Assembly (NCBI GenBank): GCA_035260845.1
Contig: DATFUL010000003.1
Location: 75,620 to 139,619, forward strand
DNA: 64,000 bases
From: Patescibacteria group bacterium
GTDB lineage: Bacteria; Patescibacteriota; Microgenomatia; UBA8517
Direction: 5' to 3'
Shown: piece by piece, positions 13,857 to 54,139 of the stretch
How positions within the stretch are numbered: the stretch's first letter is position 1
Layout of the letters: every line of letters starts with the position of its first letter
Program-made: the position numbers and the translations under genes
The notes under the pieces: generated by a model
The model's input: only the letters and a program-made list of their open reading frames with translations
The model's database searches: none
What the model was told of the DNA's origin: nothing

Positions 13857-13857
13857 A

Positions 13858-15276: not shown

Positions 15277-15277
15277 A

Positions 15278-16273: not shown

Positions 16274-16274
16274 T

Positions 16275-22411: not shown

Positions 22412-22430
<19 letters not shown>
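22077..22430 (-). CDS. Small membrane protein, DUF2304-like, companion of the upstream GT2
   Basis: 117 aa with 3 TM and a basic C-terminal tail. It directly overlaps the GT2 gene at 22412..23080. GT2 followed by DUF2304 is a recurrent pair. Confidence 0.55.
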
Positions 22431-24081
<1,651 letters not shown>

Positions 24082-27609: not shown

Positions 27610-27618
27610 GGTTAGTCA

Positions 27619-29250: not shown

Positions 29251-29274
29251 AATATTTACAACTACACCCCAACT

Positions 29275-30918
29275 TTATTCTTGAAAATTGCTATAAATCT
29301 CAAATGCTGATTTTCCATCTAAAAAGTTGACTGCATTAATCTTATTCCATCCTTTTGGATAATTACCAGGGGATGTAATTAATAGGCATCTCATATTTTT
29401 ACAATCTATTTTTACTTTACTTTCCGTGACAAGATCTTTTATTTGCCAGTCATTTACGAAATAAAACTTGTCAAATCTGTCTACCCAATACCAATTTGAT
29501 TGAAAAAAAGTAATCTTACTTGCATCATTTAGATATTTTGATGGATTGTAATATAAATAAAATAGAAAATATTCATGCGGTTCACCATATTTTTTTGTAA
29601 CAATTATCTTGTCATACTCGCTATCGTGCTGTTTTACATAGTCAACAGCTTGTTTGTATCCATATTGCCAACTCCAACTGTAGTTAGTTCTATAAGCAGT
29701 AACATAATTAACGATATAACTTTCGGCAAATATAAATGTAAGAATTGCATATATAGAAACTGTCAAAAACTTGTAATTTTCTTTTACTTTTGATAACAAT
29801 TCAAAAAAACAAATCGAAATTAAGATTTCAGGAATAGGAAGCATGGTTGTAGCCCGAATGACAGCAAAACTTTCGTTTGTTAATGAGGCAGGAATGGGTG
29901 AAAGAATAAGCCATAAAAGCAAAAATCTATAATTTTTGTCTTTTAGTGCCATTGCGATAATAAATATTATTCCTATATAAAAAAATGGCAGGTTTACTGG
30001 GTAAATTAGTCCAAAATTTGGAACACTGAATTGGTACTGAGTGCCACCTTTTATAAACAAAAATTTAGGAGAAAAATAACTAATGTAATTTTTAGAAAAA
30101 TTTTCTATAAAATAAACAGGGCGGTTGTAAATAATCCTCTTAATATTATTAGGAAGTTTTGATGAGTTTCTGGCTTCAATAATTTTATTTACAGCACCCT
30201 GATCAACAAGAAACAGAACATTGCCCCGGGCAGTTGCCCCGGGGTTTATTAAGATATAAGCAGAAAATAATATGAAAATTCCTGCAAAAACATAGATTAC
30301 TTTGCTGCTTATTTCTTTTCCGTAAATAAGAAGTGTTCCAATCAAAAGTAGTGGAGAAAATATTCGTGTTGTATGGTAAGAAAAAAGAGTCAGAAAGAGT
30401 GAAATAAAAGAAAAAGAAAGAAAGTGTTTATTCTTTTCTCTGTTCACAAAGAGTGCAGCAGCTGTAATTAAAAAGAAAACCGATAAATTTGATTGGAGTA
30501 CAAACCTTGATGTAAATACATACCATGGGCTAATTGCAGTCAAGAAGCTGGAAAATAAGCTGATGTCTCGTCTCTTTGTAATTCCAAACGCTAAAAAGTA
30601 AACAGAAATTATTGTTAAAACCCCAAGGATTGCGTGTGGAAAACGAATAGAAAATTCTGTTAAACCAAATAGCGCGATAAAAGGTATTGTTAAATAAAGA
30701 TTTAGTGTGGTTGGATAATCCCCATAAGCTCTAAAATTAAAAAAAGGCAACCTTTGACCCCATTGATCCATCCCCGTCTTAAGAATTGAATAAGCATTGT
30801 AACCATGACTAACTTCATCCCAATTAAGTGCAGGCGGATTCCAAGATAAAAAGGTGAACCTTAAGACGGCTCCCAAAACAATAATTAAAATTAAGTATGT
30901 TAAGTTCTTTCTGCCCAT
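29275..30918 (-). CDS. GT-C ArnT/PMT-like membrane glycosyltransferase, family A paralog 3
   Basis: LNWDEVSHGYNAYSILKTGMDQWGQRLP with the same architecture. Confidence 0.75.
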   Translation of the reverse strand: MGRKNLTYLILIIVLGAVLRFTFLSWNPPALNWDEVSHGYNAYSILKTGMDQWGQRLPFFNFRAYGDYPTTLNLYLTIPFIALFGLTEFSIRFPHAILGVLTIISVYFLAFGITKRRDISLFSSFLTAISPWYVFTSRFVLQSNLSVFFLITAAALFVNREKNKHFLSFSFISLFLTLFSYHTTRIFSPLLLIGTLLIYGKEISSKVIYVFAGIFILFSAYILINPGATARGNVLFLVDQGAVNKIIEARNSSKLPNNIKRIIYNRPVYFIENFSKNYISYFSPKFLFIKGGTQYQFSVPNFGLIYPVNLPFFYIGIIFIIAMALKDKNYRFLLLWLILSPIPASLTNESFAVIRATTMLPIPEILISICFFELLSKVKENYKFLTVSIYAILTFIFAESYIVNYVTAYRTNYSWSWQYGYKQAVDYVKQHDSEYDKIIVTKKYGEPHEYFLFYLYYNPSKYLNDASKITFFQSNWYWVDRFDKFYFVNDWQIKDLVTESKVKIDCKNMRCLLITSPGNYPKGWNKINAVNFLDGKSAFEIYSNFQE

Positions 30919-32369
30919 ATTTTCTTTTTTAAAACATAAATTGCAGCAACAATTATTGTACTCAAACTAATTATGTTACCGATTTTCCTAATAGGAGTAT
31001 CTTTAAAACTGGCGCCACTGGAGGGTATCAATCCATTTTCATCAGGAGTATTGTTCCAACCTGGGAAATAATTAATGTACTTTCCGTTCCCTGGTAAATT
31101 TGGTATTTTGTGTCCGAATTGCGGCCAATAATCTCCAATCGAAGCGGTTCTTTGGCGAGTCCATTCTGCACCAGTTGTAAAATATGAGTCACTTACTTTG
31201 TACCAAATATCTCCACGGAAAAATGATAAGTTAAAAACAATTGCCAATATCGCAACAATTAAACTAACTAAAACTTTTTGTTTTTCAAAAAATTGAAGGA
31301 TTGCACCACTTGATAACGCAAAACAAAATGTAGCTACTCCTAAAAACCTCCAAGGAAACTGAATATATGCCATGCCAGAGATATGAGTCCAAAGGAATGT
31401 TGATTTATTGTGAGTTAAGAAAATATAAAATATGCCAACTATAAACAAAGTCAGAAAAGTCATGTTTTTTGATATTTTATTCCTAATAACAATTGCTATG
31501 AGAATAACGAGTGGCAACAACCACTGAATAGTTCCAATCGAAAGGCTTAGTCCATCCCCAATACCCCATGTGGAACCGCCATAACCCCAAAATCTTGAAA
31601 TAAATATTTGATAAAGTGTTACAAAATGAGCCCTGAAATCAAAATATCCAGTAATTGTACTACCCAAATCAACATATTTAGACTCAAAAATAACCGGTAA
31701 AATATAAAAAGCAGAAATTAAAAATGAAACTACACCTGCCGGAATACTTTTCCAAAATCTTCTATAAATAATCCATATAATAAGTATCGGCAAAAACATA
31801 ACGAGAGATAAATTGTGAGTTAAGATTAAACCAGAAAGTAATATTGAAAACCAAATATATGATTTTTTCTCGATCGATAAAAGTATTAGTGGGAAAAAAA
31901 TAAACGAGAAGGCTTCGGGAAGGGCTCCACGTACCCAAACATCAACTGCACGGTATGGTGCATACAAATAGATTATTGAAGAGATAAAAGCAGAATAATT
32001 ATTTTTCCATATCTCTTTTGCTAAGAAAAACATGGAAACAGAAGAACCAAAAAGTGAAAGTATAAAAAGAAACTTAAGTGAGTTAATTATACTTCCACCA
32101 ACTAAATGATAAATTTCACCGATTGCGTATGGAAGTTGACCATAGAAATTAAAAAGAGGCTCTCCATAACCCAAACCTGCGTCTGGTGACCAACGGCAAG
32201 GAATTTGTAAATTTTGTATACATTTATCAAACTCATAAAGTCTAAAAAAATGAAAGTCCTGCATTGAATAAATTCCGGGTTGAAGCATCTTATAAAAAGT
32301 TGGGATAGACAATAGAAGAATTAAGACAACGAAAATATTTTTACTCAGAAAATTAGTTAGCTTTTGCAT
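30900..32369 (-). CDS. Polytopic membrane protein, family C (possibly YfhO/PTPS-related-like GT-C candidate), paralog 1
   Basis: TM1 then MQDFHFFRLYEFDKCIQNLQIPCRWSPDAGLGYGEPLFNFYGQLPY. Nearly the same motif occurs in 52406..54139. Confidence 0.55.
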   Translation of the reverse strand: MQKLTNFLSKNIFVVLILLLSIPTFYKMLQPGIYSMQDFHFFRLYEFDKCIQNLQIPCRWSPDAGLGYGEPLFNFYGQLPYAIGEIYHLVGGSIINSLKFLFILSLFGSSVSMFFLAKEIWKNNYSAFISSIIYLYAPYRAVDVWVRGALPEAFSFIFFPLILLSIEKKSYIWFSILLSGLILTHNLSLVMFLPILIIWIIYRRFWKSIPAGVVSFLISAFYILPVIFESKYVDLGSTITGYFDFRAHFVTLYQIFISRFWGYGGSTWGIGDGLSLSIGTIQWLLPLVILIAIVIRNKISKNMTFLTLFIVGIFYIFLTHNKSTFLWTHISGMAYIQFPWRFLGVATFCFALSSGAILQFFEKQKVLVSLIVAILAIVFNLSFFRGDIWYKVSDSYFTTGAEWTRQRTASIGDYWPQFGHKIPNLPGNGKYINYFPGWNNTPDENGLIPSSGASFKDTPIRKIGNIISLSTIIVAAIYVLKKKIWAERT

Positions 32370-34044
32370 AGGCTTTATTTAGGGGGTTAACTACATATAT
32401 AGATGGTGTTCCGTCCGGAAAATAAAATGTTTTAATGGCAACGATATTTTTAGGAAAATCGTCTGGGTGCCCAACCAATAGTGTATTTGGAAGATTCACA
32501 TCCGTCTTCCAATCAAAAGATCTAATTGTGTAGTTCGCAAGTGAATAACTTGGTAACTGGTCTAACCAAGAAAGACCAGATTTATCAAAATTCCAATTCT
32601 TTGTATTCTTTTGATAGTCGCTCGGTGGTAATTTGCTTGAAAATGCAATAAATATCTGGGGTTCAGACAAACTACGGCTCAAAATTACATTTCTTCCATT
32701 TGAGTTTTCATGAAGATAATTAGCCATATCTAAATTTCCATACAACATTTGACCATTTACGTTGTTTGGTTGAGGCTTAAAATAGTCACTTTTAAAGATA
32801 AATATTTGATAAATCGAGAATATACAAAAAACTAGTGTCGGCAAAACACTAAATTTTTTGCCTCGAAGAAATAAAGTCCATCCAATAAATCCAAATCCTT
32901 CAAGAATCTGAAGAACGGGAAGCATACCCTCTGCTCTATTGCCAGAATATCCAGTACCAGAAGCTAGCGCAGCAGGGAGTGGAGCAATTAGAAGCCAAAC
33001 AATTATTGGCAATAGAACCAGTCTTGATTTTTTGTTTAATAAAACTGGAATTAAACCAAATAAAAGTATTCCCTCAAATATATAAATTGTACCTACGTTT
33101 GCAACCATACCGTAATAAAATTCTGCTGCACCTTTTGTAAATAGAAATCTTGGAGAAAAATATTGAATATAATTAGTTGTAAAACGGTTTGCCACAACTT
33201 GATATTTATTATGCAATATTTTTGAAACGATTGGGTTTTTACCCATTTGGATAAGTTTTATTTTTGCTTCAGCACCTTCCTCAAGTGCACCTTGGGTAAT
33301 ACTTCTCTCAGATATCCTTGCCCCACCCCCTAGTGTAAAAGAGTAAGCAATTGCGATACAAAATATTATAAAAATAACTAGCGATAAAAATAATTTTCTA
33401 AACCCGATTCGTTTGAGATCTTTATAGAAAATCACAAAAAGTCCAATTATAACCAAAGGTGTAATCAGTTTCGCAGAATGATATGTAAACAGACTTATTC
33501 CAAAAAAAATCGCTGACCAAATAAAGAATTTTGAGTGTTTAAGTCCTTTTAGAAAGAAATAAATTCCTGCCGGAAGAAAGAGGGTTATTAAATTAGCTTC
33601 AAATGCACCCCTACTCATCATAACAGCCCATGGGTTAACAGCAAGGAGAAAAGCTGTAACTATTGCAGGACTAAAAGTATCATTAATTCCAAGATTATTT
33701 TTATATTTTTCAAATAATTCTTTTGTAAGAAGATATACAAATAATACAGCCAAAGTGCCTACAAGCACATTTGGAAAACGGGTAGCAAATACATTTAGAC
33801 CAAAGATTGCTATGAATGGAACATCTAAATACCCATACACTGGAGACTTATAGTCTCCGAATGACTTTAATACTATTGGCAATAAATTACCCCATTGATC
33901 GCGACCAGTATGGAGAATCGAATAAGCATCGTAGCCAAACGATGCCTCGTCAGCATTAAAACCAACGGGAAAGTTTGTAACTGAGGCCACACGAATCAAA
34001 AAAGATATTGCCAATACAATGCAAATTAATAACCTTTTCATCAC
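32353..34044 (-). CDS. GT-C ArnT/PMT-like membrane glycosyltransferase, family A paralog 4
   Basis: FNADEASFGYDAYSILHTGRDQWGNLLP...FGDYKSPVYGYL. Confidence 0.75.
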   Translation of the reverse strand: MMKRLLICIVLAISFLIRVASVTNFPVGFNADEASFGYDAYSILHTGRDQWGNLLPIVLKSFGDYKSPVYGYLDVPFIAIFGLNVFATRFPNVLVGTLAVLFVYLLTKELFEKYKNNLGINDTFSPAIVTAFLLAVNPWAVMMSRGAFEANLITLFLPAGIYFFLKGLKHSKFFIWSAIFFGISLFTYHSAKLITPLVIIGLFVIFYKDLKRIGFRKLFLSLVIFIIFCIAIAYSFTLGGGARISERSITQGALEEGAEAKIKLIQMGKNPIVSKILHNKYQVVANRFTTNYIQYFSPRFLFTKGAAEFYYGMVANVGTIYIFEGILLFGLIPVLLNKKSRLVLLPIIVWLLIAPLPAALASGTGYSGNRAEGMLPVLQILEGFGFIGWTLFLRGKKFSVLPTLVFCIFSIYQIFIFKSDYFKPQPNNVNGQMLYGNLDMANYLHENSNGRNVILSRSLSEPQIFIAFSSKLPPSDYQKNTKNWNFDKSGLSWLDQLPSYSLANYTIRSFDWKTDVNLPNTLLVGHPDDFPKNIVAIKTFYFPDGTPSIYVVNPLNKAYAKAN

Positions 34045-34089
34045 TATCTGATTGTATCATCTGCTGATCCTAATTGTTAAAATATAGAT

Positions 34090-34674
34090 ATGAATTATTT
34101 TAAAAAAATAGTAATTGTATTTTGTATTATTCTTTGGCCTCTAAATTTATTATTAAACTTCAAAGGCAACACCTCATTTGAGACGATTTTTACCAATGAT
34201 TACCAAGGAGAACAGTTAATTCTTAGAAACATACACCTCTATCCGACTATTGCTCTCGCAAGGGTTTTTCAAAACAAACCGAGAATTTATATTTATAAGT
34301 TTTTTAATAATTTGTTTATATTAACTGATCCTAATAATTATTTTTTCGGACTTCATCCGGAACCAATTCCGGGACAAAACAATATTTTCAAATATCAATT
34401 CGTCGCAATTGTATTTTTTGCGTATGGCATATTTAGTATTTCAAAGTACAAATATAAAAATATAATTCTATTCACTTTTATTCCTTTTGTATTATTTCTA
34501 TCAATTTTAAAAAACTTCTACGGATTAGACCTAATTTTGTGGATCCCAATTTCTTTGACAATAGGCAACGGTGTAACACAGATGATGATTGATAATAAAA
34601 AATTGTTCACAGTTACATCAATACTGCTTATCGTATTTGCAGTTCCTGAATTAATAAGGAGTTTTATAAGGTAA
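34090..34674 (+). CDS. Hypothetical small membrane protein of 194 aa
   Basis: ORF with 4-5 hydrophobic segments, divergent from 32353..34044. No family was recognised. Confidence 0.4.
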   Translation: MNYFKKIVIVFCIILWPLNLLLNFKGNTSFETIFTNDYQGEQLILRNIHLYPTIALARVFQNKPRIYIYKFFNNLFILTDPNNYFFGLHPEPIPGQNNIFKYQFVAIVFFAYGIFSISKYKYKNIILFTFIPFVLFLSILKNFYGLDLILWIPISLTIGNGVTQMMIDNKKLFTVTSILLIVFAVPELIRSFIR

Positions 34675-34692
34675 ACAGATCTTGGCAAAATT

Positions 34693-36444
34693 ATGAATTT
34701 TATGAAAAAATATCTTTCCTACATTTTACTTGGGTTGATAGTCTTAATTGCTGTAGTTTTGCGACTTTACAAGCTTGGCGAAGCTCCTGCTGGCTTATAT
34801 GTTGACGAGGCCGGACAGGGGTATAGTGCTTATTCGATCCTAAAAACGGGAAGGGATGAATTTGGAAAATCGTTCCCGATTGTTTTCCGGTCATTAACAG
34901 ATTTTAAAACTCCTGTTTATATTTATCTTATTGTTCCTTTAATTCCCTTATTCGGACTTACTCCATTTACTGTTAGGCTGCCGTCTTTTATTTTTAGTAT
35001 CCTTACAATTCCGGTTTTATTTTTCTTGATAAAACGATTATTTAAAGATAAACAAAGTTTGGCCAAATCAAAATTTGGTGAAAAACTTGCATTATTGTCC
35101 TGTTTTCTACTTGCCATAAGCCCTTGGCACATTTTATTTGGCCGTACAAATTTTGAATGCAATGTAGCCTTATTCTTCTTCCTTTCTGGAGTCTTGTTTT
35201 TTTACAAAGGCTTAGAAAAACCAAAAACATTAATTTTGTCTGCCTTAATGTTTGGGATTGCGATTCCTGCATATCATTCGCAAAGAATAATAACACCGCT
35301 TATAATGACCATCCTTTTTATAAAATTTAGGAAAATATTGTTAGACAAAATCCACAAGAAGTATTTAATCTATTCAATCATTCTTGGTTTTGTTATCACT
35401 TTGCCAACATTGTCTGTAATATCTACACCAGGTTTCTTGGCACGTGCAACAGGACTTAATATATTTTCACATCTTCATCAAATGCCTGATGGGTTTATTG
35501 CAAGTTATAAAGGGATTTTAAGTCCAATTGTTAATGGTTCTTGGTTTTTAACAACTCGGGAATTTTTTTCACTTTACTTTTCTTATTTGTCACCGCGTTA
35601 TATGTTTCTTCTTGGAGATTCTGGACCAAGAAGTTCTTTCCCTGAACTTTCAACATTTTTCCTATGGCAATTCCCTTTTTATATTTATGGAATTTGGATT
35701 TTATTGACTAAAAAAAATATTAGCGATCTTAAATTTCTTACGATAGCATTATTAATTGCATCTCCAATTCCTGCTGCGGTTACTCGTGACCCATATACAA
35801 CAATCAGATCTCTACCTTTAGTAATTCCTCAGTTAATTGTAATCTCACTTGGAATCTTGGAAATATACTCAAAGTTAAAAATCGGTTTTGTTAAAAAAAC
35901 CTCTCTTCTGCTGTTTTATGCGGTAGTCATTTATTCTATTTGTAAACTTTACAGTTCTGTTATTGTTCTGAATGAATATTACCGGGCCAAGGCGTGGGAC
36001 TATGGATGGCAACAGGTTACCAGTATTATCCAAGGGCTTAATACTGATTTACCAATAGTCACAGATAACGCAAGAAGCGATGCTTATCCGCAAATTGCCT
36101 TTTACTTAAAATACGACCCTCTTAAATTCCAAAAAGAAAATTTCGAAGTGCCGACAAATGAATATTATACGAATCTTTACCATAATTCAGAAAAGCATAT
36201 TGGAAAGATTGTTACCCGACCAATAAACTGGGAAAAGGATTTGTTGGTTGATCAATATTTAATTGCTGACGAACTTGGAATATCGCTGCAACAGATAAAG
36301 ACTCACAAACTGATTCTCATTTCGGAAGTTAAATATCCAGATGGAGCAACAGCATATAGAATAGTGCGAACTAATCCAGAATTTACAAAAGAGGAACAAA
36401 GATTATTTAATTCCAGAAAACAAGTAGAACGCGGGTTCCCCTGA
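34693..36444 (+). CDS. GT-C ArnT/PMT-like membrane glycosyltransferase, family A paralog 5
   Basis: LYVDEAGQGYSAYSILKTGRDEFGKSFP...LTDFKTPVYIYL. Confidence 0.75.
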   Translation: MNFMKKYLSYILLGLIVLIAVVLRLYKLGEAPAGLYVDEAGQGYSAYSILKTGRDEFGKSFPIVFRSLTDFKTPVYIYLIVPLIPLFGLTPFTVRLPSFIFSILTIPVLFFLIKRLFKDKQSLAKSKFGEKLALLSCFLLAISPWHILFGRTNFECNVALFFFLSGVLFFYKGLEKPKTLILSALMFGIAIPAYHSQRIITPLIMTILFIKFRKILLDKIHKKYLIYSIILGFVITLPTLSVISTPGFLARATGLNIFSHLHQMPDGFIASYKGILSPIVNGSWFLTTREFFSLYFSYLSPRYMFLLGDSGPRSSFPELSTFFLWQFPFYIYGIWILLTKKNISDLKFLTIALLIASPIPAAVTRDPYTTIRSLPLVIPQLIVISLGILEIYSKLKIGFVKKTSLLLFYAVVIYSICKLYSSVIVLNEYYRAKAWDYGWQQVTSIIQGLNTDLPIVTDNARSDAYPQIAFYLKYDPLKFQKENFEVPTNEYYTNLYHNSEKHIGKIVTRPINWEKDLLVDQYLIADELGISLQQIKTHKLILISEVKYPDGATAYRIVRTNPEFTKEEQRLFNSRKQVERGFP

Positions 36445-38079
36445 AGGAAACGGAATTGATTTAATTAGTTTTAGACCCTCTGGTGTTTTATCCGGGTGCA
36501 ATATCAAATTTTCCCCATCTTCACTAGCGTTGGCTAAGTATAAAGTTTTTGAGTCAATATATTTTCCGAGTCCGTATATTTTAACATTTGGGTCAGGTGA
36601 CCCAAAATAAAACTTACCTGTGTGGGATATCTTTCCAAAACCTGAAACTTCTATGTCGTTTCCGATTGGAAATTCTTTCTGCCAAATAGTTGGATTGTAT
36701 TCATAGTGTCCAGCGAAGAATATCCAAGCAGGTTCACCACTCATAGAGATAATTACACGGTCGTAACTTGAATCAATAGATTTAACTTCACTAATTGCCT
36801 GCCCCCAACCATAATGCCACCAATGTTCACTATTTATTGGATAAACAAGATAATATTCATGAAAGTAAAAAACCATGGACAGAATGTAAAGCGATGATGC
36901 GACAACTATAAAAAATGTTTTATATTTTTGAGAAATAATTTTGTAAATTGAAAGCCACCCAAAGGATATAAAAAATATTAAAACAGGCAAAATTAATATT
37001 AAACGTGTGGCGTGTGTGCCACCGCCAATTGTTAGTGCCGAGGGAAACGCTCCAACCAAAAGCCAAAAAGACATTAACAATTTAGTTTTAGTATTAATAT
37101 TCTTTTCAAAAAAGAAAAATGCCAAACCGAGAAGCAATGGAACTATCTCTATTAAATACAATTCACCAGTTCCGATAGATTGACGTAAATTTGCATCTCC
37201 TTTCAAAAACAAGAAGTCTGTAGAAAATGATCCAAAATAATTATTCAAAATTTCGCTACCCCAATATGTGTATTTATTATAAATAAATTTATTGTTATCT
37301 ATCTTTCTACCTTCTCCAACTGTTTGTTCCATTTTTGAATCATTAAAAACACTAATGTCGTTTATTCTTTGCGTTCCACCTCCAAAAACAGTACTGGTTG
37401 CAATTGGAACTCCAATAATTAACCCAGCAATTAAGACAAAAACAAGTTCGCGCTTAGCCATTCTTAATATTTTTTTCCTGTAAAGAACAAATAAGAATAT
37501 TAAAAGAAGGGGTGTAAATAATTTTGCGGTTGAATACACCCAAGGCATAAGGACTAGTAATGCAACAGAAAGCCAAAGCCTTTTTGAAGTATCTAAAGAT
37601 TTAATAAATAAATAAAGCCCCAGGATCAGCAAAAATAGCATTTCGGTTACTTCAAAACCAGCTCTTGAGTATTGAATTAACCATGGTGAAACCGCTAATA
37701 AAAATGCAGAGACCAAACTAAGATTTTTGTTTTTTGTTAATTGATTTACGAGTAAATACATTGCATATACAATCAAGGTTCCAAAAATCGCAGCAGGTAA
37801 TCTAACACCTAATGGCGTAATACCAAAGATGGCCACAGTTGGAACAGCAGAGTATAAATAAAGCGGAGTTCGCCATTCAGCAAGTGAATGAAAATGAACT
37901 GGCATAAAATTTCCCATATAGTCTCTACCTGTATGAAGAATTGAATATGCCTGGTAGCCCAGATCGAGTTCGTCGCCAAAAAGTGATGGTGGATTAACAG
38001 ACAACCTATATAAACGGAGAATTGAAGCAAGAAGAATTATGGCAATAAGTAAAAATTTAGCGGTTAAAATCTTTCTCAT
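36403..38079 (-). CDS. GT-C ArnT/PMT-like membrane glycosyltransferase, family A paralog 6
   Basis: LFGDELDLGYQAYSILHTGRDYMGNFMP...LAEWRTPLYLYS. Its 3' end overlaps 34693..36444 convergently by 42 nt. Confidence 0.7.
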   Translation of the reverse strand: MRKILTAKFLLIAIILLASILRLYRLSVNPPSLFGDELDLGYQAYSILHTGRDYMGNFMPVHFHSLAEWRTPLYLYSAVPTVAIFGITPLGVRLPAAIFGTLIVYAMYLLVNQLTKNKNLSLVSAFLLAVSPWLIQYSRAGFEVTEMLFLLILGLYLFIKSLDTSKRLWLSVALLVLMPWVYSTAKLFTPLLLIFLFVLYRKKILRMAKRELVFVLIAGLIIGVPIATSTVFGGGTQRINDISVFNDSKMEQTVGEGRKIDNNKFIYNKYTYWGSEILNNYFGSFSTDFLFLKGDANLRQSIGTGELYLIEIVPLLLGLAFFFFEKNINTKTKLLMSFWLLVGAFPSALTIGGGTHATRLILILPVLIFFISFGWLSIYKIISQKYKTFFIVVASSLYILSMVFYFHEYYLVYPINSEHWWHYGWGQAISEVKSIDSSYDRVIISMSGEPAWIFFAGHYEYNPTIWQKEFPIGNDIEVSGFGKISHTGKFYFGSPDPNVKIYGLGKYIDSKTLYLANASEDGENLILHPDKTPEGLKLIKSIPFPSGEPAFYLFSGIK

Positions 38080-38113
38080 TACGTTTAGTTTAACATTTTT
38101 AAAATAAATTTGG

Positions 38114-41121: not shown

Positions 41122-41157
41122 TTGTATAAAAAGCCTAAATCTGCTATTGTTTCGTTA

Positions 41158-42882: not shown

Positions 42883-42890
42883 TCCATTCC

Positions 42891-47051: not shown

Positions 47052-47053
47052 TT

Positions 47054-47953: not shown

Positions 47954-47980
47954 GCCTAAATTGTACCACCAATCTTCCTA

Positions 47981-49678
47981 TTATTCGACTCTATAAATTA
48001 TGACCAAGTCATTCTCAAATATATTTGCTAAAGATAGTTTGCCCAAATCCAAAGGTGATTTACTCGCTTTAATCCAATAAATATATTTAATATCGTTTTT
48101 GACCAAAAATTGCCTAGATTTACCAGTATCAAGTTCTTGATACCAAGACGCTATTTGAGATCTTCTATCTTGCCAGTCGTAACCTGTTATATCTAAATTT
48201 ATTTCATCCTCTAAGAATGTTGGTTGCTTGGAGAAGGCCGAAACATATGCTGTTGATGTATATAGATAAAGTGGTCTTGGCGGATTGTTTTCAGCCATTT
48301 TTGCCAAAAATGAATCAAAAGGCTTTGTCAAAACTATCCCCTGCGGCTGCTTTGATAGAAAGTTTAAAGCCGAAAGCTCGGACTCTGAAACCATTGCCGG
48401 TGGACGGTTAGGTATATATACATCTTTTAAAGTAATTAATGTTGTAGGAATTGTAGCTAAAACAATTAAAGAAATGAGAAGTTTACTTTTTATTTGCGAG
48501 ACAACAGTTCCTGCTAAAATTGATGAGAAAAATAAAGAGTAATAAAAAAATTGGATTGTATTCCAGGGTGAACCTTTTTGTAAAAATAGCATTGGAATTA
48601 CCCCACCTGCAACAATGAATGATCCAATAAAAACTTGCGTCCAAGACAATCTTTTTATGTTTTTAAGCCAGGTAAGAAGCGTAAATTCTTTTAAAATTCT
48701 AGTTCCCATGTTTCCTAACCAAAATATTGCAAAGGCGACTAAATATGCCAGAGTACCTTTAAAGTAATTGTGTGCTAATTTGTAATTGATCATTGCAGAA
48801 TAGAACCTGGGCCAATCCAGACGGTCGGAAAGCCCCATCAATGTCTCTAAAAACCAAAATGGTTGGAAAACAAAAAGACTAACTGAATGGCTATTAAATG
48901 GTAAATAAACAATCAAAGAAAGAATTAAAGATCCCATAAAAATTTTTAGAAGTAGACTCTTTTTATAAAGGATGAATGAATATAATCCCGAAACAAGCAG
49001 TCCACCAAGGGCCAACACTCCCGCATAGGCTTTGATTTCTATTAGGCTACCGAAAAATAAAATCGATAATACGAAGTTCCAAATTTTAAATTTTTCCTCA
49101 AGGCTAAAGATAAGAATAAGTCCAAATAGGAGAAATATTAGAGATAGTGCAAAGGGTGGATTAATGAGAGATGAAACTGCTTGTTGTGCCCAAAACGCAG
49201 ACTCTCCTTTCCCTAAAATCCAACCAAAACTCCCTCCGAAATATACAAAGAATGTTGCCCAAAAAGCTGATTTTTTTGAATTGATAAATAAATCCGTAAA
49301 TTTGTAAGTTAATAGTCCAATCAATATTGAAAAAATTACGGGAAGAATTTGAAAATATAAATTTATAATCGGAATGAAAGTAATTTTGTGTAGTATTGCT
49401 AGAATTAAATCAAAACCAATGTGGTAGTTTTGAATTATGGATCCGGCAAAGATTGGTATCGAGAAAGACCCTTGAGACAAACTTTCGGCAAGAGCAATAT
49501 GCCAAATTCCATCATGACCATTAGCACCCCAAAACCCAAGTCCGGATCCATTGATTCCTAATGAAGAATAAAACCACCCACTTTTGACCATCGTTAAACT
49601 CCAACTTATTGTCCCAAATAAAGTAAGTATAAAGAGTTTATTTTTTTGAAAAAATTGTTTTAAAACTTGTTTTAGCAT
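47981..49678 (-). CDS. Uncharacterised polytopic membrane protein of 565 aa (candidate polymerase/GT-C-like)
   Basis: At least 12 TM and a C-terminal soluble domain. It overlaps the wzx-like gene by 41 nt. Confidence 0.5.
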   Translation of the reverse strand: MLKQVLKQFFQKNKLFILTLFGTISWSLTMVKSGWFYSSLGINGSGLGFWGANGHDGIWHIALAESLSQGSFSIPIFAGSIIQNYHIGFDLILAILHKITFIPIINLYFQILPVIFSILIGLLTYKFTDLFINSKKSAFWATFFVYFGGSFGWILGKGESAFWAQQAVSSLINPPFALSLIFLLFGLILIFSLEEKFKIWNFVLSILFFGSLIEIKAYAGVLALGGLLVSGLYSFILYKKSLLLKIFMGSLILSLIVYLPFNSHSVSLFVFQPFWFLETLMGLSDRLDWPRFYSAMINYKLAHNYFKGTLAYLVAFAIFWLGNMGTRILKEFTLLTWLKNIKRLSWTQVFIGSFIVAGGVIPMLFLQKGSPWNTIQFFYYSLFFSSILAGTVVSQIKSKLLISLIVLATIPTTLITLKDVYIPNRPPAMVSESELSALNFLSKQPQGIVLTKPFDSFLAKMAENNPPRPLYLYTSTAYVSAFSKQPTFLEDEINLDITGYDWQDRRSQIASWYQELDTGKSRQFLVKNDIKYIYWIKASKSPLDLGKLSLANIFENDLVIIYRVE

Positions 49679-51131
49679 CTTCTACTAAACTTAGTCCAAC
49701 CATCGTGACCATTGATACAAGATAAACTATAAAGCCAAGAGATACCAAAACCTCCATTGCAAATAGGTTAGTTGGCAAAAATCTACGAGCTACAATAAGA
49801 ACTGTTCCCATAACAAAGGATCCAATTAGCGGCTTTAGCATCGAATCAGTTATAGAAAAATTAACATATTTTTTGGCAATTATAATAGCTGCTACCGATG
49901 ACGCCCCGACCAAAGAATATCCGATTGAAGCACCAACAACTCCATATTTTATTGCCAATGTTGGAACAAATGCCCAAGTTAAAACCGTCCACATTATCAT
50001 CAAATAAAAAGTAATTTTTATTTTACCAATCGCGTTTAATAGATTTGTTAATTGAGTTGTAGCTGCTGCAAAGATAAAGTTTATAGACACAAAGATAATA
50101 GGGACAAGAGCGGGAATCCATTGGTTATATTTAGGAACGATACGAACCAAAATTGGAGCCAAAATAGAAATACCTACCAAACTAGGAAATACTAATAAAC
50201 ATATAAAAAATATTGACCTTGTAACACTCCGTTCCAAATCCTCTTTTGCATCCTGCATTCTTGAAAAAGCCGGGAAAGTAACACGGGTAACGGTATCCAT
50301 GAAAAACGTTAATGGTAACCGGGAAATTTTTTGGGCAAAAGATAATACCCCGACTCCAATCGGACCAAGGATACTACCCAAAATCAAAGTCATTCCATCA
50401 TCTTTAAAAGTAGCTAGAAATGTATTTATTTGATAAGGCACGCCAAATTTGAAAAGCCCAATTAGAGTGTTTTTAGAAAAAGCGAAGCCGGGTTTCCAAG
50501 GTTCCAAAATATAGATTGTAACAAGACCGACAATTCCCCGGGCAAGTATTGCATAGGTAAAACTGCCAAGACCAAGTCCTTTCATTGCCAAAAAGACCAA
50601 GATTACGTTATAAACAACTTGTTCTAAAATTTGGGGAAAAACCAGTTTAATAAAATCGAGTTTCCTTTCTAAAAGAACTGATGGAATACTTTTTAGGGAT
50701 GAAAACAAAAGCGATGAGGCAAGTGCGTATAAAAGTATTTGTCCATCATGGGTCAGCGAATATTTTTGCGTAAAGAAGGGAGTTAAAGCTATAACAATCC
50801 CAATAATTACTAATACTAAAAACTGTTGAACGAAGAAAGTCGTTTTAAGATCGGAGTCGGTTGGTTTTTCTTTTTTCTGAATTAAAGCAGCGGCTAGACC
50901 AATGTCGGAAAAATAAACTAAAAAGTTAACTAAAGCGCTAACTATTGCAAAAACACCAAATTCATATTTGCCTAAATAAGCAAATAAAAAGAGCTGTGCA
51001 ACTAAGCCAATTATTTGAAGAAGAAATGTTCTTCCTGTTAAAACAACGACGCCGCGAACAGAACGTTCTTTTACAGTTTCTAACGATATTTCTGTAGTTG
51101 GGTCTAAGTGTTCTTGGCTTACTTCATTCAC
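49638..51131 (-). CDS. wzx: Wzx-type oligosaccharide flippase (MOP superfamily polysaccharide biosynthesis protein)
   Basis: About 14 TM. N-terminal GRTFLLQIIGLVAQLFLFAYLGKYEFGVFAIVSALVNFLVYFSDIGLAAALIQKKE is the typical Wzx/PST-family start. Confidence 0.75.
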   Translation of the reverse strand: MNEVSQEHLDPTTEISLETVKERSVRGVVVLTGRTFLLQIIGLVAQLFLFAYLGKYEFGVFAIVSALVNFLVYFSDIGLAAALIQKKEKPTDSDLKTTFFVQQFLVLVIIGIVIALTPFFTQKYSLTHDGQILLYALASSLLFSSLKSIPSVLLERKLDFIKLVFPQILEQVVYNVILVFLAMKGLGLGSFTYAILARGIVGLVTIYILEPWKPGFAFSKNTLIGLFKFGVPYQINTFLATFKDDGMTLILGSILGPIGVGVLSFAQKISRLPLTFFMDTVTRVTFPAFSRMQDAKEDLERSVTRSIFFICLLVFPSLVGISILAPILVRIVPKYNQWIPALVPIIFVSINFIFAAATTQLTNLLNAIGKIKITFYLMIMWTVLTWAFVPTLAIKYGVVGASIGYSLVGASSVAAIIIAKKYVNFSITDSMLKPLIGSFVMGTVLIVARRFLPTNLFAMEVLVSLGFIVYLVSMVTMVGLSLVEDAKTSFKTIFSKK

Positions 51132-52422
51132 GCTTAAATTGTATCATGAGGCGCCTTGTAAACGTAACAAAAAGTAAAACCTGTATAACTGAAACTGCAC
51201 GCATCAATAAATAATTATTGTCTATAAAGAAATGATAAAGTTCGTCCGATCCTCTTCTATAGAAGGAATAAGTAATGTTGGCTATTAATATCAAGTTTAT
51301 AATGACCAAAGAGATTAAAAGCCTGGGTTTAGAAAAAGCCAAGATTACCATCGGGGCAAATGCAGGGAAAAAATACCTTTCAAGCATGGTAGGCATAAAA
51401 AGAAAGCTTCCCATGGCAATCATAAAAATTCCAGAAAGCATACTTAAAAGTTTATTTTTTGCCTTACTAAAACTAAGCATTGCAACAAAATTCAAGATTA
51501 TAAAGAAAAACATTCCCCAATGCCCAGAAGTCACACCCAAAAGTTTCTGACTAGAAAAATCGATGTCCATTCTCCAAAAAATAGTTTGAAAATTAAAAGC
51601 AGAGATAGAAGCCTTGCCATCGAAACCAATTGGAATTGGATATCTATCTTTATAGAGTTTGAGACCATAAGTAAACACGTTTCCGCTCGCAAATGGAGCT
51701 GTTGTAACAATAAACAATAAAAGTGTAATTAACGAACCAAATAAAATCTGGCGAAACTTTGGTTTTATTTTATACATAGTAAATAAATAAAATGGTCCTA
51801 GAATTGCCCAACTTGGCTTAAAGTAGATACTCAAAAAAAGGATGGGCATAGAAAGAATGAGATTGCCATCAAGAAGTGTCAAAAAGGAAAGTAGTCCCAA
51901 AATTCCAACAATGCTATCAGTTTGTCCCCAAGCTCCTGAAATAAAAATAGTTATCGGGTTAAAAAGAAAAAAACATAGTCCCGCAAGTGATTTCTTTACA
52001 TTTTTAGTCAACTTGAAAATAAGTTTATAAACAATTAAAGAAAGCCCAAGGTCGCATAAAATTGATGGCAGTTTGATAAGTAATATATTTCCCCACTTAT
52101 AAAAATAAATTATGAAACTACTAGGTGGAAGCCTTATTAAATTATGTACTTGGGCCAAAACATAACGATGTTGATTAAGAATATTAAGTCCGGCAAACAT
52201 CCACATTGATACAGGTGGATAAACAGGTACTGAATAGTACCAACCTTCACTAAAATAAAAGTTTTTGGGGCCGGTTGTAGCTAGTCGTTCTCCCCATTCA
52301 CTATAGTTCATCAAATCTCCAACAACTACTTTATCTATAAAATATGTACGTATAAAAAAACCAGCCAAAAGAAGAATAAAAATTAAGATATTAAGCCGGT
52401 TTTTTTTAATCCAACTTCCCAT
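51124..52422 (-). CDS. Uncharacterised polytopic membrane protein of 432 aa, possibly a GT87/DUF2029-like GT-C
   Basis: Hydrophobic throughout, with a conserved-looking loop FNPITIFISGAWGQTDSIVG. Confidence 0.45.
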   Translation of the reverse strand: MGSWIKKNRLNILIFILLLAGFFIRTYFIDKVVVGDLMNYSEWGERLATTGPKNFYFSEGWYYSVPVYPPVSMWMFAGLNILNQHRYVLAQVHNLIRLPPSSFIIYFYKWGNILLIKLPSILCDLGLSLIVYKLIFKLTKNVKKSLAGLCFFLFNPITIFISGAWGQTDSIVGILGLLSFLTLLDGNLILSMPILFLSIYFKPSWAILGPFYLFTMYKIKPKFRQILFGSLITLLLFIVTTAPFASGNVFTYGLKLYKDRYPIPIGFDGKASISAFNFQTIFWRMDIDFSSQKLLGVTSGHWGMFFFIILNFVAMLSFSKAKNKLLSMLSGIFMIAMGSFLFMPTMLERYFFPAFAPMVILAFSKPRLLISLVIINLILIANITYSFYRRGSDELYHFFIDNNYLLMRAVSVIQVLLFVTFTRRLMIQFKRE

Positions 52423-54139
52423 TTGAAAATCTCTTTTTCCAAAATGGGTAGGATAAAAGTCCAGCCCAAGCCAATATGGATAAATAATTACTGATTGCCC
52501 GTATCGGAGTATTTGCTAATTTTAAAGAGACAGAATGGTTCCCTTTTGGAATATTTGTATACATTCTGCCATAAAGTTCAGTTTCTGGAATGTAGGGTTC
52601 TATAGAATTACCGTCTAAAGTTATTTTCCAATTTGGAAATTGGAACAAGTCTATTCTGACAACTGAATCTGTAGTTAAATTGACATCAAACCTGGCCCAA
52701 TTAGTTCCTTCTAATGTATTCGTAACGTTTCCGTTCCCCGTAAAGATTTCGGCTAGTACAACAGATGGATCTTTTGGATTCTGTTTTGCAGTTACCGGTA
52801 GATAATCAAAAATACCTGCAGTTCGCTGTAAATCCCAAGCTGCACCTGAAAACTTTTGTGCTTCACTTAGTGGACCCATCTTACCTCCAAGTGGTAAAAA
52901 GTAATTCCAATTCAAAATAACTAAAAGGGTAATTAAAACCAACCCAATAACTACTGCAACTTTCCTTGGAAAAATAATCATAACTGATCCGGCAGCAAGA
53001 GAAAATCCTAATATCGCAAGTGTTAAGAAGCGCCAGGGGAACTGAACAAATGCCAAAAAGTGAATTTTTTGCCAAATAAAAGTCGAGTCCTGGTGAGCCA
53101 TAAAGGTAGCAAACCAACCAAAAGCAATCGAAAAGTATATTGTATATAGTATATTGGGGTCGATTTTATATTTCCTTCTGTTTACAAAAACAAGAGTTGC
53201 AAAAATAAGAATCACTAAAGATAAAATCCAGTGAACATGCCCAACCTGAAAAGGCATACCATCATTCGGACCCCAAATTGATGGGCCAAAACCCCAAAAT
53301 CGGGAAAATAAAAGCTGTCCGATCGTTGCAAAGTGGGCAATATATTCATAATAACCTTGAGTTAATGTATCAACGTGAACAAATTTTTGCTCGAATATAG
53401 CAGGAAGTGTAAAAAATGCTGCAAGAGATGCGGCGAGAATACCAGAACAAATTAGTTGGAAAAACTTCTTCCAATCATGCTTTTTAACCCAAAACATAAG
53501 ACACCAAAGTGCAAAAACAGGAGTAAAGATCATAACCATTAAGTTGTGTGACAAAAGTAATCCTGTCCAAGAAAGGCCAAGGCCAATAAGCCATTTAGTT
53601 GTCTCTTTTTTATCACTTTGTATTAATTTATAGGCAACCCAAAGAATAAGCGGAAACCAAACTAACGCCCAAGCTTCATTCATAGCCCCACGGACATAGA
53701 TGTCTACCGAGTGGTATGGTGCCCAAATGTAAAATATTGAGGAGATTACCCCACCCCACTTACCAAAAAATTCTTTAGCAAGAAAATACATAGTGAGCCC
53801 TGAAATAACAAAAGATAATGCAAAAGTTAATTTGACTGTATCTGTAAAGTTAAAGTGTAAAACTCTAAAAACTGTCCCGACAAAGTATGGTAATGGTGGA
53901 TAAAAATTAAATAATGGAAAACCGTATCCATAACCCATATCAGGAACCCAACGGCATGGAACTTGCCCATCAGCAAAACACTTCTCCATCTCAAGCTGCC
54001 TCATCATCTGCAAATCATCATGCATATTAAAGTAGCCTTTTTCGAAAATTAAAGTACGTCCAGCAAGAATTGCAAAAAACAAAACTGCCAGAATTGGCCA
54101 GAAGTTTGTAGATTTAGTTATTTTTTGAAGAAGTTTCAT
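52406..54139 (-). CDS. Polytopic membrane protein, family C paralog 2
   Basis: MHDDLQMMRQLEMEKCFADGQVPCRWVPDMGYGYGFPLFNFYPPLPY. Collinear paralog of 30900..32369. Confidence 0.55.
   Translation of the reverse strand: MKLLQKITKSTNFWPILAVLFFAILAGRTLIFEKGYFNMHDDLQMMRQLEMEKCFADGQVPCRWVPDMGYGYGFPLFNFYPPLPYFVGTVFRVLHFNFTDTVKLTFALSFVISGLTMYFLAKEFFGKWGGVISSIFYIWAPYHSVDIYVRGAMNEAWALVWFPLILWVAYKLIQSDKKETTKWLIGLGLSWTGLLLSHNLMVMIFTPVFALWCLMFWVKKHDWKKFFQLICSGILAASLAAFFTLPAIFEQKFVHVDTLTQGYYEYIAHFATIGQLLFSRFWGFGPSIWGPNDGMPFQVGHVHWILSLVILIFATLVFVNRRKYKIDPNILYTIYFSIAFGWFATFMAHQDSTFIWQKIHFLAFVQFPWRFLTLAILGFSLAAGSVMIIFPRKVAVVIGLVLITLLVILNWNYFLPLGGKMGPLSEAQKFSGAAWDLQRTAGIFDYLPVTAKQNPKDPSVVLAEIFTGNGNVTNTLEGTNWARFDVNLTTDSVVRIDLFQFPNWKITLDGNSIEPYIPETELYGRMYTNIPKGNHSVSLKLANTPIRAISNYLSILAWAGLLSYPFWKKRFSNGKLD

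Follow-up and report, generated by a model that had tools for sequence, protein, structure and literature searches.

Two paralogous GT-C-fold membrane proteins of the PF10131 family with a conserved first-loop motif in a glycan-assembly island of a Microgenomates bacterium

Introduction

The nearest studied relatives of the membrane proteins described here are the YfhO-family enzymes, with members such as YfhO of B. subtilis and S. aureus, Listeria Lmo1079 and the streptococcal PgtC2 and PgfM1/M2. Together with a GT2 enzyme (CsbB, GtrB or PgfS), YfhO-family enzymes glycosylate teichoic acids or Ser/Thr-rich proteins extracellularly (PMC8035078, PMC5836110, PMC12041528), and YfhO of B. subtilis has an extracellular domain of 389 aa between its last two transmembrane (TM) helices (PMC5836110). 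A second relevant family is PF10131 (“PTPS_related”, the 6-pyruvoyl-tetrahydropterin synthase-related membrane domain), which Pfam places in the GT-C clan CL0111. It is abundant, a profile search at E <= 1e-3 having given 17,781 representative clusters, yet we know of no member with a known reaction. The searchable literature on PF10131, including that on Patescibacteria and GT-C proteins, offered passing mention and nothing functional; in one case the family is given as “function unknown” (PMC7801869), in agreement with an earlier note on the DNA studied here, which had called the family barely characterised.

That DNA (hereafter the window) is a stretch of 64,000 nt from a Patescibacteria group bacterium (GTDB lineage Bacteria; Patescibacteriota; Microgenomatia; UBA8517; assembly GCA_035260845.1, contig DATFUL010000003.1, forward strand 75,620 to 139,619).

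The two genes and their first-loop motif

Two ORFs on the minus strand, for which the coordinates in the earlier note proved exact, encode a short paralog A (30900..32369, 489 aa) and a long paralog B (52406..54139, 577 aa). The proteins are homologous from end to end (33% identity, E 5e-94), the smaller size of A being due to the absence of a C-terminal beta-sandwich that B has, and they are anciently diverged paralogs of one family of putative membrane glycosyltransferases with a GT-C fold, here termed family C. This family is the Microgenomates (Woese-, Shapiro- and Blackburnbacteria) branch of PF10131, and the YfhO enzymes are its nearest studied relatives.

Both translations bear out the motif that had been noticed in the two ORFs, D-x4-R-x6-C-x7-PCRW-x-PD-x-G-x-GYG-x-PLFNFY-x2-LPY, in the first loop after TM1 (EL1). 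It reads DFHFFRLYEFDKCIQNLQIPCRWSPDAGLGYGEPLFNFYGQLPY in A (D38-Y81, with the Cys pair C50/C58; 32127..32258, minus strand) and DDLQMMRQLEMEKCFADGQVPCRWVPDMGYGYGFPLFNFYPPLPY in B (D41-Y85; 53885..54019, minus strand). Between A and B the identity is 53% in the loop and 30% overall in the family alignment, and “almost identical”, as the loop had been described, is thus too strong. No further copy of PCRW or LFNFY occurs in the six-frame translation of the window outside A and B.

EL1 is the lowest-entropy, i.e., most conserved, region of the family alignment of 61 sequences. In B its conserved positions are the invariant Asp (D41/D42), R47, C54/C62, P61, R63, W64, G73, P75, F77, N78 and Y80; beyond the loop, P141, R150, E155 and R370 are also invariant. 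The earlier note had allowed that the motif might be missing from homologs and hence be lineage noise. It is instead retained in the 120 closest homologs and persists across 141 diverse representatives that are mutually <50% identical (R47 in 136, P61 in 138, R63 in 139, G73 in 136, P75 in 140 and Y80 in 136; D41 is Asp in 122, and 16 of the remainder are alignment gaps), and because of this conservation chance or lineage noise can be ruled out as its origin. C54 and C62 are both Cys in 102 of the 141 representatives and both absent in 39, with not a single case of one Cys only. Since the two cysteines are always present or absent together, a disulfide C54-C62 within EL1 is suggested for the Cys-bearing branch. 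The sister group without the cysteines was found by homolog search in Roizman-/Levybacteria.

Family assignment and predicted structure

The earlier note had guessed at a YfhO- or PTPS-related membrane protein and had proposed an HMM search to check this. B indeed scores above the gathering thresholds of both PF10131 (38.2 bits vs 26.4) and PF09586 (33.2 bits vs 28.5), and its sequence agrees at 100% identity with a Patescibacteria protein in NCBI that already bears the name “6-pyruvoyl-tetrahydropterin synthase-related protein”, taken from PF10131; “undescribed-looking” is therefore no apt description of a family that belongs to a Pfam GT-C clan. Both matches are partial. That to PF10131 spans model positions 1-318 of 621 (B residues 77-422), which falls short of whole-model coverage and is equally partial in fused relatives, and that to PF09586 spans model positions 68-237 of 835. 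The PF10131 model opens at “FNFY..LPY”, so that the Pfam domain begins where the motif ends. Because the matches start at B residue 77, the curated Pfam models leave out the greater part of the motif, and its N-terminal two thirds (the Asp, the R, the Cys pair, PCRW and GYG) fall outside PF10131. For A no Pfam match was obtained at E <= 0.1; some A orthologs carry PF10131 or PF09586, and PF10131 was found in many orthologs of A and B and, with few exceptions, throughout the non-Cys sister group. A search of both proteins against NCBIfam gave nothing useful, the sole match of A being to a glycopolymer-formation domain at 18 bits vs a cut-off of 150. Searches of the PDB with B and with a 61-sequence profile returned no match even at E <= 10, which indicates that no close relative has been solved.

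AlphaFold2 models of A (pLDDT 92.1, pTM 0.92) and B are confident. Comparison with GT-C folds, as the earlier note had suggested, shows that both models have the GT-C fold and are similar in three dimensions to solved GT-C enzymes: Foldseek matched A to AftD, STT3, AglB and PglB, and the last three are among the best structural matches of the two models taken together. Membership of the oligosaccharyltransferase (OST) family can nevertheless be ruled out for A and B because its defining motifs are absent: neither protein matches the STT3 Pfam domain (PF02516) at E <= 0.1 or contains a WWD (as in WWDYG) or DxD string, and neither has a large C-terminal periplasmic domain of the STT3/AglB/PglB type. 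The secondary structure of the models was read as ~12 TM helices in each protein, within the GT-C range of roughly 8-13, and a Kyte-Doolittle scan gave 8-10 strongly hydrophobic segments; neither lends support to the “more than 12” counted earlier. In the models both proteins would have their N and C termini in the cytoplasm, where the positive charges lie; that EL1 would face outward is suggested by the fold, the positive-inside rule and the covariation of the Cys pair.

The stretch between the last two TM helices is ~130 aa long in B and contains one predicted extracytoplasmic beta-sandwich (DSSP strands at residues 460-541; 52517..52762, minus strand), which resembles accessory domains of glycoside hydrolases; in A it is ~75 aa long and without a sandwich. 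With a probability of 93%, hhalign places the sandwich and last TM helix of B over the C-terminal end of a YfhO-domain protein of 783 aa. B shares with the YfhO family an above-threshold Pfam match, the GT-C fold and a homologous C-terminal beta-sandwich and TM helix. Between the last two TM helices the layout of B is like that of B. subtilis YfhO, but at a much reduced size. Family C proteins are also shorter overall (489-577 aa vs the 835-position Pfam model and the 783-aa protein), and the first loop of a YfhO-type protein from a related genome, “...QGLAPLWNPY...FYPLN”, has neither the Cys pair nor the PCRW of family C.

In comparison with PMT/ArnT-type GT-C enzymes (GT39/GT83; PF02366, PF13231), B scores 24.9 bits on PMT_2 (PF13231), below the threshold of 26.1, and family C has no MIR domain. 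Its EL1 is ~16 residues longer, a Cys-pair/PCRW insert replacing the plain “DE...GY.AYS” loop. The statement in the earlier note that the motif is not the ArnT/PMT “DE” loop is correct for the string, but probably not in substance, since EL1 directly follows TM1 and has an invariant Asp at its start (D38 in A and D41/D42 in B). This residue lies 8-10 positions past TM1; a conserved acidic residue in EL1 (D/E, modified DXD) is a mark of the GT-C superfamily. In a forced global alignment of N-terminal profiles, of a probability of only 41%, HDD falls over the DE of the PMT-type paralogs in the window and GYGxPLFNF over their G..P.FNF. Position and this forced alignment together make EL1 of family C probably the positional equivalent of the “DE” loop. 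The unforced profile comparison with the eight PMT_2-type paralogs of the window (termed “family A”) aligned TM2-TM6 alone and did not cover the first loops; further along, hhalign placed WAPYH.VD.YVRGA..E of family C over their invariant ..PW....SR...E with a probability of 90%. The shared motif is most likely the outward-facing catalytic loop of A and B.

Gene neighbourhoods and fusions

The window encodes at least 15 GT-C-like membrane proteins. A and B each stand in a conserved gene array of their own across Microgenomates. A lies between two “family A” genes, both on the minus strand and recognised by Pfam: a PMT_2-type gene directly upstream (32353..34044, 17 nt overlap) and a PMT/PMT_2-type gene directly downstream (29275..30918, 19 nt overlap), which is fused to family C elsewhere. 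The order PMT_2 - A - PMT - PMT_2 - PMT - GT2 is kept in six of the six genomes examined. A neighbour of the 32353..34044 type is also found in five other loci (L005, L006, L087, L088 and L089), where the junction with A is a 17 nt overlap in three, a 4 nt overlap in one and a 43-nt gap in one. The earlier note had both paralogs overlapping their upstream GT-C gene; this holds for A, while B is separated by a 23-nt gap from the PMT/PMT_2-type gene upstream of it (54163..55671, minus strand; Pfam).

Among 79 related loci, an ortholog of 54163..55671 occurs in 68 and is the immediate upstream neighbour in 56; in eight loci a GT2 gene takes that position. Two genes upstream of B, 56178..56924 (minus strand; Pfam GT2) encodes a polyprenyl-phosphate sugar synthase-like GT2 of 248 aa, orthologs of which are present in 66 loci and whose best NCBIfam matches (PgfS, ArnC and dolichyl-phosphate hexose transferase) are all under the cut-offs. 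Across their full length, the small GT2s of the island are closest to polyprenyl-phosphate sugar synthases in NCBIfam, and a GT2 joined to GtrA/DPMS-type TM segments is encoded at 63085..63978 (Pfam). Downstream of B, the conserved neighbour encodes a Wzx-type MOP flippase (49638..51131, minus strand; Polysacc_synt_3, E 5e-50; NCBIfam MOP flippase, TuaB and O-glycosylation Wzx), present in 68 of the 79 loci, directly after B in 52, usually with overlapping reading frames, and one gene further on in 13 more. In the window the slot between B and the flippase, a variable one, is filled by 51124..52422 (minus strand; a polytopic protein of 432 aa, ~9 hydrophobic segments), which overlaps B by 17 nt, has no Pfam or NCBIfam match and occurs in only 10 of the loci. 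Directly after the flippase follows a conserved polytopic protein of 565 aa (47981..49678, minus strand; orthologs in 62 of the loci) without a Pfam match. Its first loop is GT-C-like (GFWGPNGHDGIWH ... P.FSG..L.NYH.GFD), and hhalign relates it to family C with a probability of only 10%. Behind the flippase there also follow genes for GT2 and GT4 enzymes, as is usual where repeat units are assembled. Neither an initiating phosphoglycosyltransferase nor a WaaL/Wzy_C-type ligase was recognised in the window.

Conserved adjacency and natural gene fusions speak for a joint action of family C and enzymes encoded next to it. GT2::family C fusions occur in five mutually distant clusters. In P0248 an N-terminus 45% identical to 56178..56924 (E 3e-66) is joined to a B-like domain, and the other four contain a generic GT2 nearest to 42891..43793, which is not of the synthase-like type. 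P0506 (1098 aa, Shapirobacteria) and P0281 join family C to a domain 42-43% identical to full-length 29275..30918, P0367 joins it to a GT-C like that encoded at 19881, and P0241 and P0243 are family C::family C fusions. P0264 and P0506 recur in several independent assemblies, the latter in NCBI, JGI and Logan. The earlier note had seen a partner in the upstream GT-C. Adjacency to it is conserved for B and in the genomes examined for A, but the stronger evidence, that of the fusions, points to 29275..30918, to 56178..56924 and to a GT-C that, in other genomes, stands in the position just downstream of B.

Proposed function and alternatives

Taking homology, fold, motif conservation, cysteine covariation, synteny and gene fusions together, we consider it likely that family C consists of GT-C enzymes of the PF10131 branch which, with EL1 as the catalytic loop, take a sugar off its polyprenyl-phosphate carrier and attach it to a glycan or protein outside the cytoplasm. 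A cytoplasmic GT2 would load the sugar onto polyprenyl phosphate, the lipid-linked sugar would be flipped across the membrane, and on the outside family C would add it to a cell-surface glycan under construction or, possibly, to a protein, A acting among four to five GT-C enzymes encoded one after the other and B in a cluster built around the Wzx flippase. As in other GT-C enzymes, the invariant Asp past TM1 may activate the acceptor or serve as catalytic base; the remainder of EL1 (R47, the PCRW turn and GYG-x-PLFNFY) would form juxtamembrane helices that shape the active site, stapled by the putative C54-C62 disulfide in the family C branch. The P141/R150/E155 segment, which lines up with a Pro and an Arg that are invariant in the PMT_2-type paralogs, could bind the donor phosphate, a conserved low-confidence loop at residues ~254-300 could close over the substrates, and the beta-sandwich of B may help to hold the acceptor. 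Pairing with a CsbB/GtrB/PgfS-like GT2, seen in the loci of B and in the P0248 fusion, is a further resemblance to YfhO systems, with the reservation that this GT2 assignment is below NCBIfam equivalog cut-offs. The acceptors probably differ from those of YfhO, since the patescibacterial hosts are, to our knowledge, not known to make teichoic acids.

Wzx-type flippases handle diphosphate-linked oligosaccharides and not monophosphate-linked single sugars, and the donor of B could differ because its immediate partner belongs to this class. In another reading, family C, or at least B, would serve the Wzx pathway next to it as en-bloc transferase or as ligase, a new oligosaccharyltransferase-like bacterial enzyme that attaches a flipped polyprenyl-diphosphate-linked oligosaccharide to a protein or cell-wall acceptor. 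The position of the flippase behind B, mostly with overlapping frames, the repeat-unit assembly genes that follow, the structural matches to STT3, AglB and PglB and the want of a recognised ligase in the window all speak for this, and we nonetheless regard it as unlikely. The same low probability applies to family C as an obligatory subunit of a hetero-oligomeric GT-C complex with the neighbouring PMT_2-type GT-C, one subunit being perhaps mainly structural or acceptor-binding. Pmt1-Pmt2 and EmbA-EmbB are precedents; the conserved GT-C neighbours and overlapping frames fit translational coupling, and family C is fused to GT-C domains, including its own kind. However, fusion and adjacency demonstrate a functional link and not physical contact, consecutive steps of a pathway also fuse, and B has a GT2 and not a GT-C directly upstream in a minority of loci. 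Moreover, family C shows no variation at any of its putative catalytic residues, which argues against a dead subunit. A bolder combination of the two ideas, with family C as a disulfide-stapled compact GT-C “ligase/oligosaccharyltransferase” that, in Microgenomates, works in a physical complex with neighbouring GT-Cs and links the oligosaccharide exported by Wzx to the acceptor on which it ends up, strikes us as quite improbable. PIG-U/GAB1 shows that a subunit with GT-C architecture can be non-catalytic; that A and B are no enzymes at all and instead polytopic transporters, flippases or scaffolds of that architecture is, in our judgement, very improbable indeed.

Implications

A lipid-linked sugar donor and transfer by family C at the outer face, the reading that we prefer, would overturn nothing; it would extend the familiar scheme of extracytoplasmic glycosylation by GT2, flippase and GT-C to a new lineage, in a compact variant. 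EL1, the covarying Cys pair, the two gene arrays and the fusions supply targets for mutagenesis (D41/D42, R47, C54/C62 and R150) and name candidate partners, the GT2 56178..56924 and the GT-C 29275..30918. Patescibacteria (CPR) have tiny genomes, and glycan assembly takes up most of the coding capacity of the window in spite of this. If the combined reading, ligase and complex in one, were true, the surface glycans of these ultra-small bacteria would be the product of a machine of several GT-Cs outside the cytoplasm, for which no characterised bacterial pathway offers a parallel.

The two genes and the conserved loop

Two minus-strand ORFs, A (30900..32369, 489 aa) and B (52406..54139, 577 aa), are present in the window at precisely the coordinates given earlier, and the first-loop segment that the earlier note had reported for this pair of family C paralogs was found in both translations, at residues 38-81 of A (DFHFFRLYEFDKCIQNLQIPCRWSPDAGLGYGEPLFNFYGQLPY) and 41-85 of B (DDLQMMRQLEMEKCFADGQVPCRWVPDMGYGYGFPLFNFYPPLPY); six-frame translation of the window gave no other PCRW or LFNFY. 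The two proteins are homologous end to end (33% identity, E 5e-94). The loop, described earlier as almost identical, does share the motif D...PCRW...GYG-x-PLFNFY-x2-LPY, although its identity between A and B is 53%, compared with 30% overall in a 61-sequence family alignment (A1). It is also the lowest-entropy stretch of the protein in that alignment (0.79 vs 1.56 bits) and the motif is thus real and non-random. Models of A and B show approximately 12 transmembrane (TM) helices rather than more than 12, and A is the shorter protein because it is devoid of the C-terminal beta-sandwich of B. The proposed overlap with the upstream gene exists for A (17 nt), whereas a gap of 23 nt lies between B and the gene upstream of it.

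A family C profile search of 1.84 billion cluster representatives matched 17,781 representatives at E <= 1e-3 and 5,810 at E <= 1e-30, with named relatives in Woesebacteria, Shapirobacteria, Blackburnbacteria, and “Microgenomates/Patescibacteria group” MAGs. Many GTDB records (L007-L086) in which Microgenomates-type clusters are evident bear the title “uncultured Gammaproteobacteria bacterium,” almost certainly a placeholder or mislabelled MAG name. Since orthologs of both A and B co-occur on long contigs (689,969, 669,374, 954,911, 223,430, and 215,126 bp), the short (A) and long (B) forms are two old orthologous groups and not a recent duplication.

The motif, first noticed in two paralogs, persists in homologs: its core is near-universal in 141 diverse representatives that are mutually <50% identical, with (numbering of B) D41 conserved in 122, R47 in 136, P61 in 138, R63 in 139, W64 in 121, G73 in 136, P75 in 140, F77 in 129, N78 in 120, and Y80 in 136 of them. 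C54 and C62 covary perfectly in this set (both in 102, neither in 39, a single one in 0), because of which a C54-C62 disulfide is predicted; this, in turn, would argue for an outward-facing loop. The Cys-less sister group, which comprises Roizmanbacteria, Levybacteria, and other Microgenomates, has the motif “K[AS]L.DGQFP[VP]RW” and matches PF10131 in almost all cases. Two giant predicted proteins from the profile search, P0272 (3329 aa, six family C profile matches) and P0289 (1670 aa, four), could be multi-GT-C fusions or mis-called genes.

Family assignment and fold

B is 100% identical to a protein on a 608,867-bp Patescibacteria contig that NCBI names “6-pyruvoyl-tetrahydropterin synthase-related protein,” and A to a “hypothetical protein” on the same contig. 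With this name and its Pfam membership, B is not the undescribed-looking protein it was taken for, and the guessed link to PTPS_related and YfhO proved right: B reaches 38.2 bits against PF10131 (PTPS_related; cut-off 26.4) and, more marginally, 33.2 bits against PF09586 (YfhO; cut-off 28.5). By Pfam criteria, B belongs to PF10131 and, at the margin, to the YfhO family. Its score on PMT_2 falls just under the cut-off (24.9 vs 26.1 bits), so that membership of PMT_2 was rejected, as was that of the OST family, whose defining features are absent. All three Pfam matches of B start at residue 77 or later, the curated models cover only the tail of the motif (FNFY..LPY), and B covers half of the PF10131 model and a fifth of that of YfhO. 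A Pfam search of A gave no match of its own. In the searchable literature PF10131 is listed as “function unknown” and no experimental study of it was found.

The models of A and B resemble GT-C enzymes; the comparison list includes Pmt4 (21.9), AglB (19.4), STT3B (19.1), AftD (18.9), Pmt2 (18.5), ArnT (18.0), AftA (17.8), ALG12 (17.2), and PglB (16.4), and Foldseek results for both models agree with this picture. Family C is, therefore, a GT-C-fold glycosyltransferase family already in the databases. The model of B contains a beta-sandwich (residues 460-541) between the last two TM helices, which in structure comparison resembles accessory domains of glycoside hydrolases. Taken together with the last TM helix, this sandwich is homologous (probability 93%) to the C-terminus of a YfhO-domain protein of 783 aa encoded in a related genome. 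B, consequently, repeats the YfhO layout on a small scale, whereas the sandwich has been lost from A.

Topology and candidate catalytic elements

The N-termini (MKLLQKITK..., MQKLTNFLSK...) and C-termini (...WKKRFSNGKLD, ...LKKKIWAERT) are positively charged which, with the ca. 12 TM helices of the models, would leave both ends of A and B on the cytoplasmic side and the loop that follows TM1 on the outer side. An invariant Asp opens this loop, 8-10 residues past TM1, and in the AF2 model of B it is followed by a short helix (44-56), the PCRW turn, and a second helix (83-93). Solved GT-C enzymes have their catalytic or acceptor-activating Asp/Glu at this loop position, e.g., the “DE” of PMTs. 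The modified DXD/DDX motif in an extracellular loop has also been described (PMC5836110). The eight family A paralogs of the window, which are PMT/PMT_2-type GT-Cs, carry an invariant D34-E35 equally far from TM1. An unforced profile-profile comparison of families C and A aligned only TM2-TM6 (probability 90%), placing P141, R150, and E155 of family C on an invariant Pro, an invariant Arg, and a conserved Glu of family A. When a global N-terminal alignment was forced, HDD fell on DE and GYGfPLFNF on G..P.FNF (probability 41%), with the Cys-pair/PCRW segment as an insertion. The earlier statement that the motif is not the ArnT/PMT DE-loop is, given the same spacing from TM1 and this forced alignment, difficult to maintain, and we read the motif as a probable derived, longer form of the GT-C catalytic first loop and not as something unrelated.

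Further invariant positions (H198-N199, E250, RFWGYG.S.W, H349, QFPWRFL, and D445) lie in loops that helix parity would place outside. Model confidence is lowest (pLDDT 52-54) in the conserved segment of residues 276-300, as would be typical of a mobile external, substrate-closing loop in GT-C enzymes.

Gene neighbourhoods

The whole window is a glycan-assembly island. In addition to the eight family A paralogs and at least five more PMT_2-type GT-Cs, it contains several GT2 and GT4 genes, a Wzx flippase (49638..51131), a DegT aminotransferase, FdtA, an epimerase, methyltransferases, and many polytopic proteins of no known family. The family A paralogs (23-35% identical) lie in a row on both strands (25969..42882); further GT-C ORFs start at 1960, 19881, 43783, 54163, 56930, and 59423, so that no fewer than 15 GT-C-like genes fall within 64 kb, in a genome whose contig measures only ca. 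0.6 Mb. Four small GT2s (56178..56924, 60943..61650, 672..1373, and 22412..23080) have polyprenyl-phosphate sugar synthases as their best, full-length matches (PgfS, ArnC, PpgS, AglJ, and dolichyl-phosphate hexose transferase), at scores far under the equivalog cut-offs. A GT2 with a GtrA/DPMS transmembrane domain occurs at 63085..63978 (minus strand); the GT2 match does not begin before model position 79, so the N-terminal part of the domain seems to be missing, and this may represent a split or frameshifted gene or a start mis-set near the window end. Six consecutive minus-strand ORFs inside the island (10403..18059; 467, 144, 547, 472, 331, and 594 aa) gave no Pfam match at E <= 0.001.

Among the matches listed, 79 related GTDB loci largely keep the order around B: GT2, GT-C, (DHH), GT-C, the 56178..56924 GT2, the 54163..55671 GT-C, B, (a 432-aa protein or a 19881-like GT-C), Wzx, a 565-aa protein, GT2, GT2, and GT4. 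An ortholog of the 54163..55671 GT-C is the upstream neighbour of B in 56 of these 79 loci, and Wzx follows B directly in 52 loci and with one gene in between in another 13. Around A the order PMT_2, A, PMT, PMT_2, PMT, GT2, (SDR), GT4 was found in 6/6 genomes examined, with the 17-nt overlap in four of the six, window included.

The 432-aa protein (51124..52422, minus strand) has ca. nine hydrophobic segments, shares 17 nt with the end of B, and yielded no family match; it occupies its slot in only ca. 10 of the 79 listed loci, a homolog of 19881..21311 being found there elsewhere. The polytopic 565-aa protein (47981..49678, minus strand) has orthologs directly after Wzx in 62 related loci among the matches listed, and a Pfam search gave no match. 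Its orthologs share an invariant GFWGPNGHDGIWH past TM1 and “P.FSG..L.NYH.GFD,” a layout reminiscent of the GT-C first loop; hhalign against family C gave a probability of only 10% and one of 23 orthologs a weak PMT match. The protein may represent a further GT-C-like family that is still undescribed, or it may be a polymerase of the Wzy-like kind. The DHH/DHHA1 phosphoesterase gene (58440..59426, minus strand) lies between two GT-C genes, and at the same place in 11 of the 79 listed loci and in two further loci (L001 and L003).

Natural fusions and proposed function

A survey of the best 150 family C representatives revealed fusions of GT2 and family C in five mutually distant clusters. The GT2 part of one (P0248) is 45% identical to 56178..56924 (E 3e-66), and another (P0264) was found on four contigs, one of 779,720 bp. 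In P0281 and P0506, family C is joined to a domain 42-43% identical to 29275..30918 over its full length; P0506 (1098 aa, Shapirobacteria, NCBI MFA6250712.1) was found also in JGI and Logan. P0367 combines family C with a 19881-like GT-C, a type that some genomes carry in the slot after B, while P0241 and P0243 are tandem family C proteins. The fusions fit the inferred topology, in which a GT2 on the cytoplasmic side would precede an N-in TM1 and the C-terminus, likewise cytoplasmic, would lead into the next GT-C. They are also the best evidence that family C acts jointly with a GT2 that forms lipid-linked sugars and with adjacent GT-Cs. For A they indicate the downstream neighbour 29275..30918 as partner instead of the upstream GT-C suggested earlier. 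In a Logan locus (L090:8001-13772, SRR22387938), the genes behind P0248 encode a GHMP kinase, a nucleotidyltransferase, a HAD phosphatase, and an epimerase; as a set they resemble a module for sugar-1-phosphate activation, possibly of the heptose type, and may give a clue to the donor sugar used by that organism.

We consider it likely that family C transfers a polyprenyl-phosphate-carried sugar onto an extracytoplasmic acceptor: a GT2 would load the sugar onto the carrier, the loaded carrier would be flipped, and family C would move the sugar to the acceptor, each enzyme representing one step in a multi-GT-C assembly line. Parallels are provided by the reviewed GT-A, flippase, and GT-C systems (PMC8035078) and by YfhO-family protein glycosylation (PMC12041528). 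The tight coupling of B to Wzx might instead mean that B serves the Wzx pathway next to it as an en-bloc ligase or oligosaccharyltransferase, but OST motifs are absent and GT2::family C fusions occur, which makes this improbable. Equally improbable, though compatible with single-sugar transfer from the carrier, is that family C forms an obligatory subunit of a hetero-oligomeric GT-C complex, and we give very little credence to a non-enzymatic protein with a GT-C fold.

By analogy, lipid-linked sugar transfer by family C would work as in YfhO/PMT-type GT-Cs, from which family C differs in being compact, in having a reduced external domain or none, and in the greater length of its first loop, with a predicted disulfide staple in this branch. 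Its proteins are unstudied members of a known enzyme type and not a new type. Neither their fold nor the scheme would surprise a specialist; new, but modest, are the density of GT-C genes in a small genome, the Cys covariation, and the fusion map.
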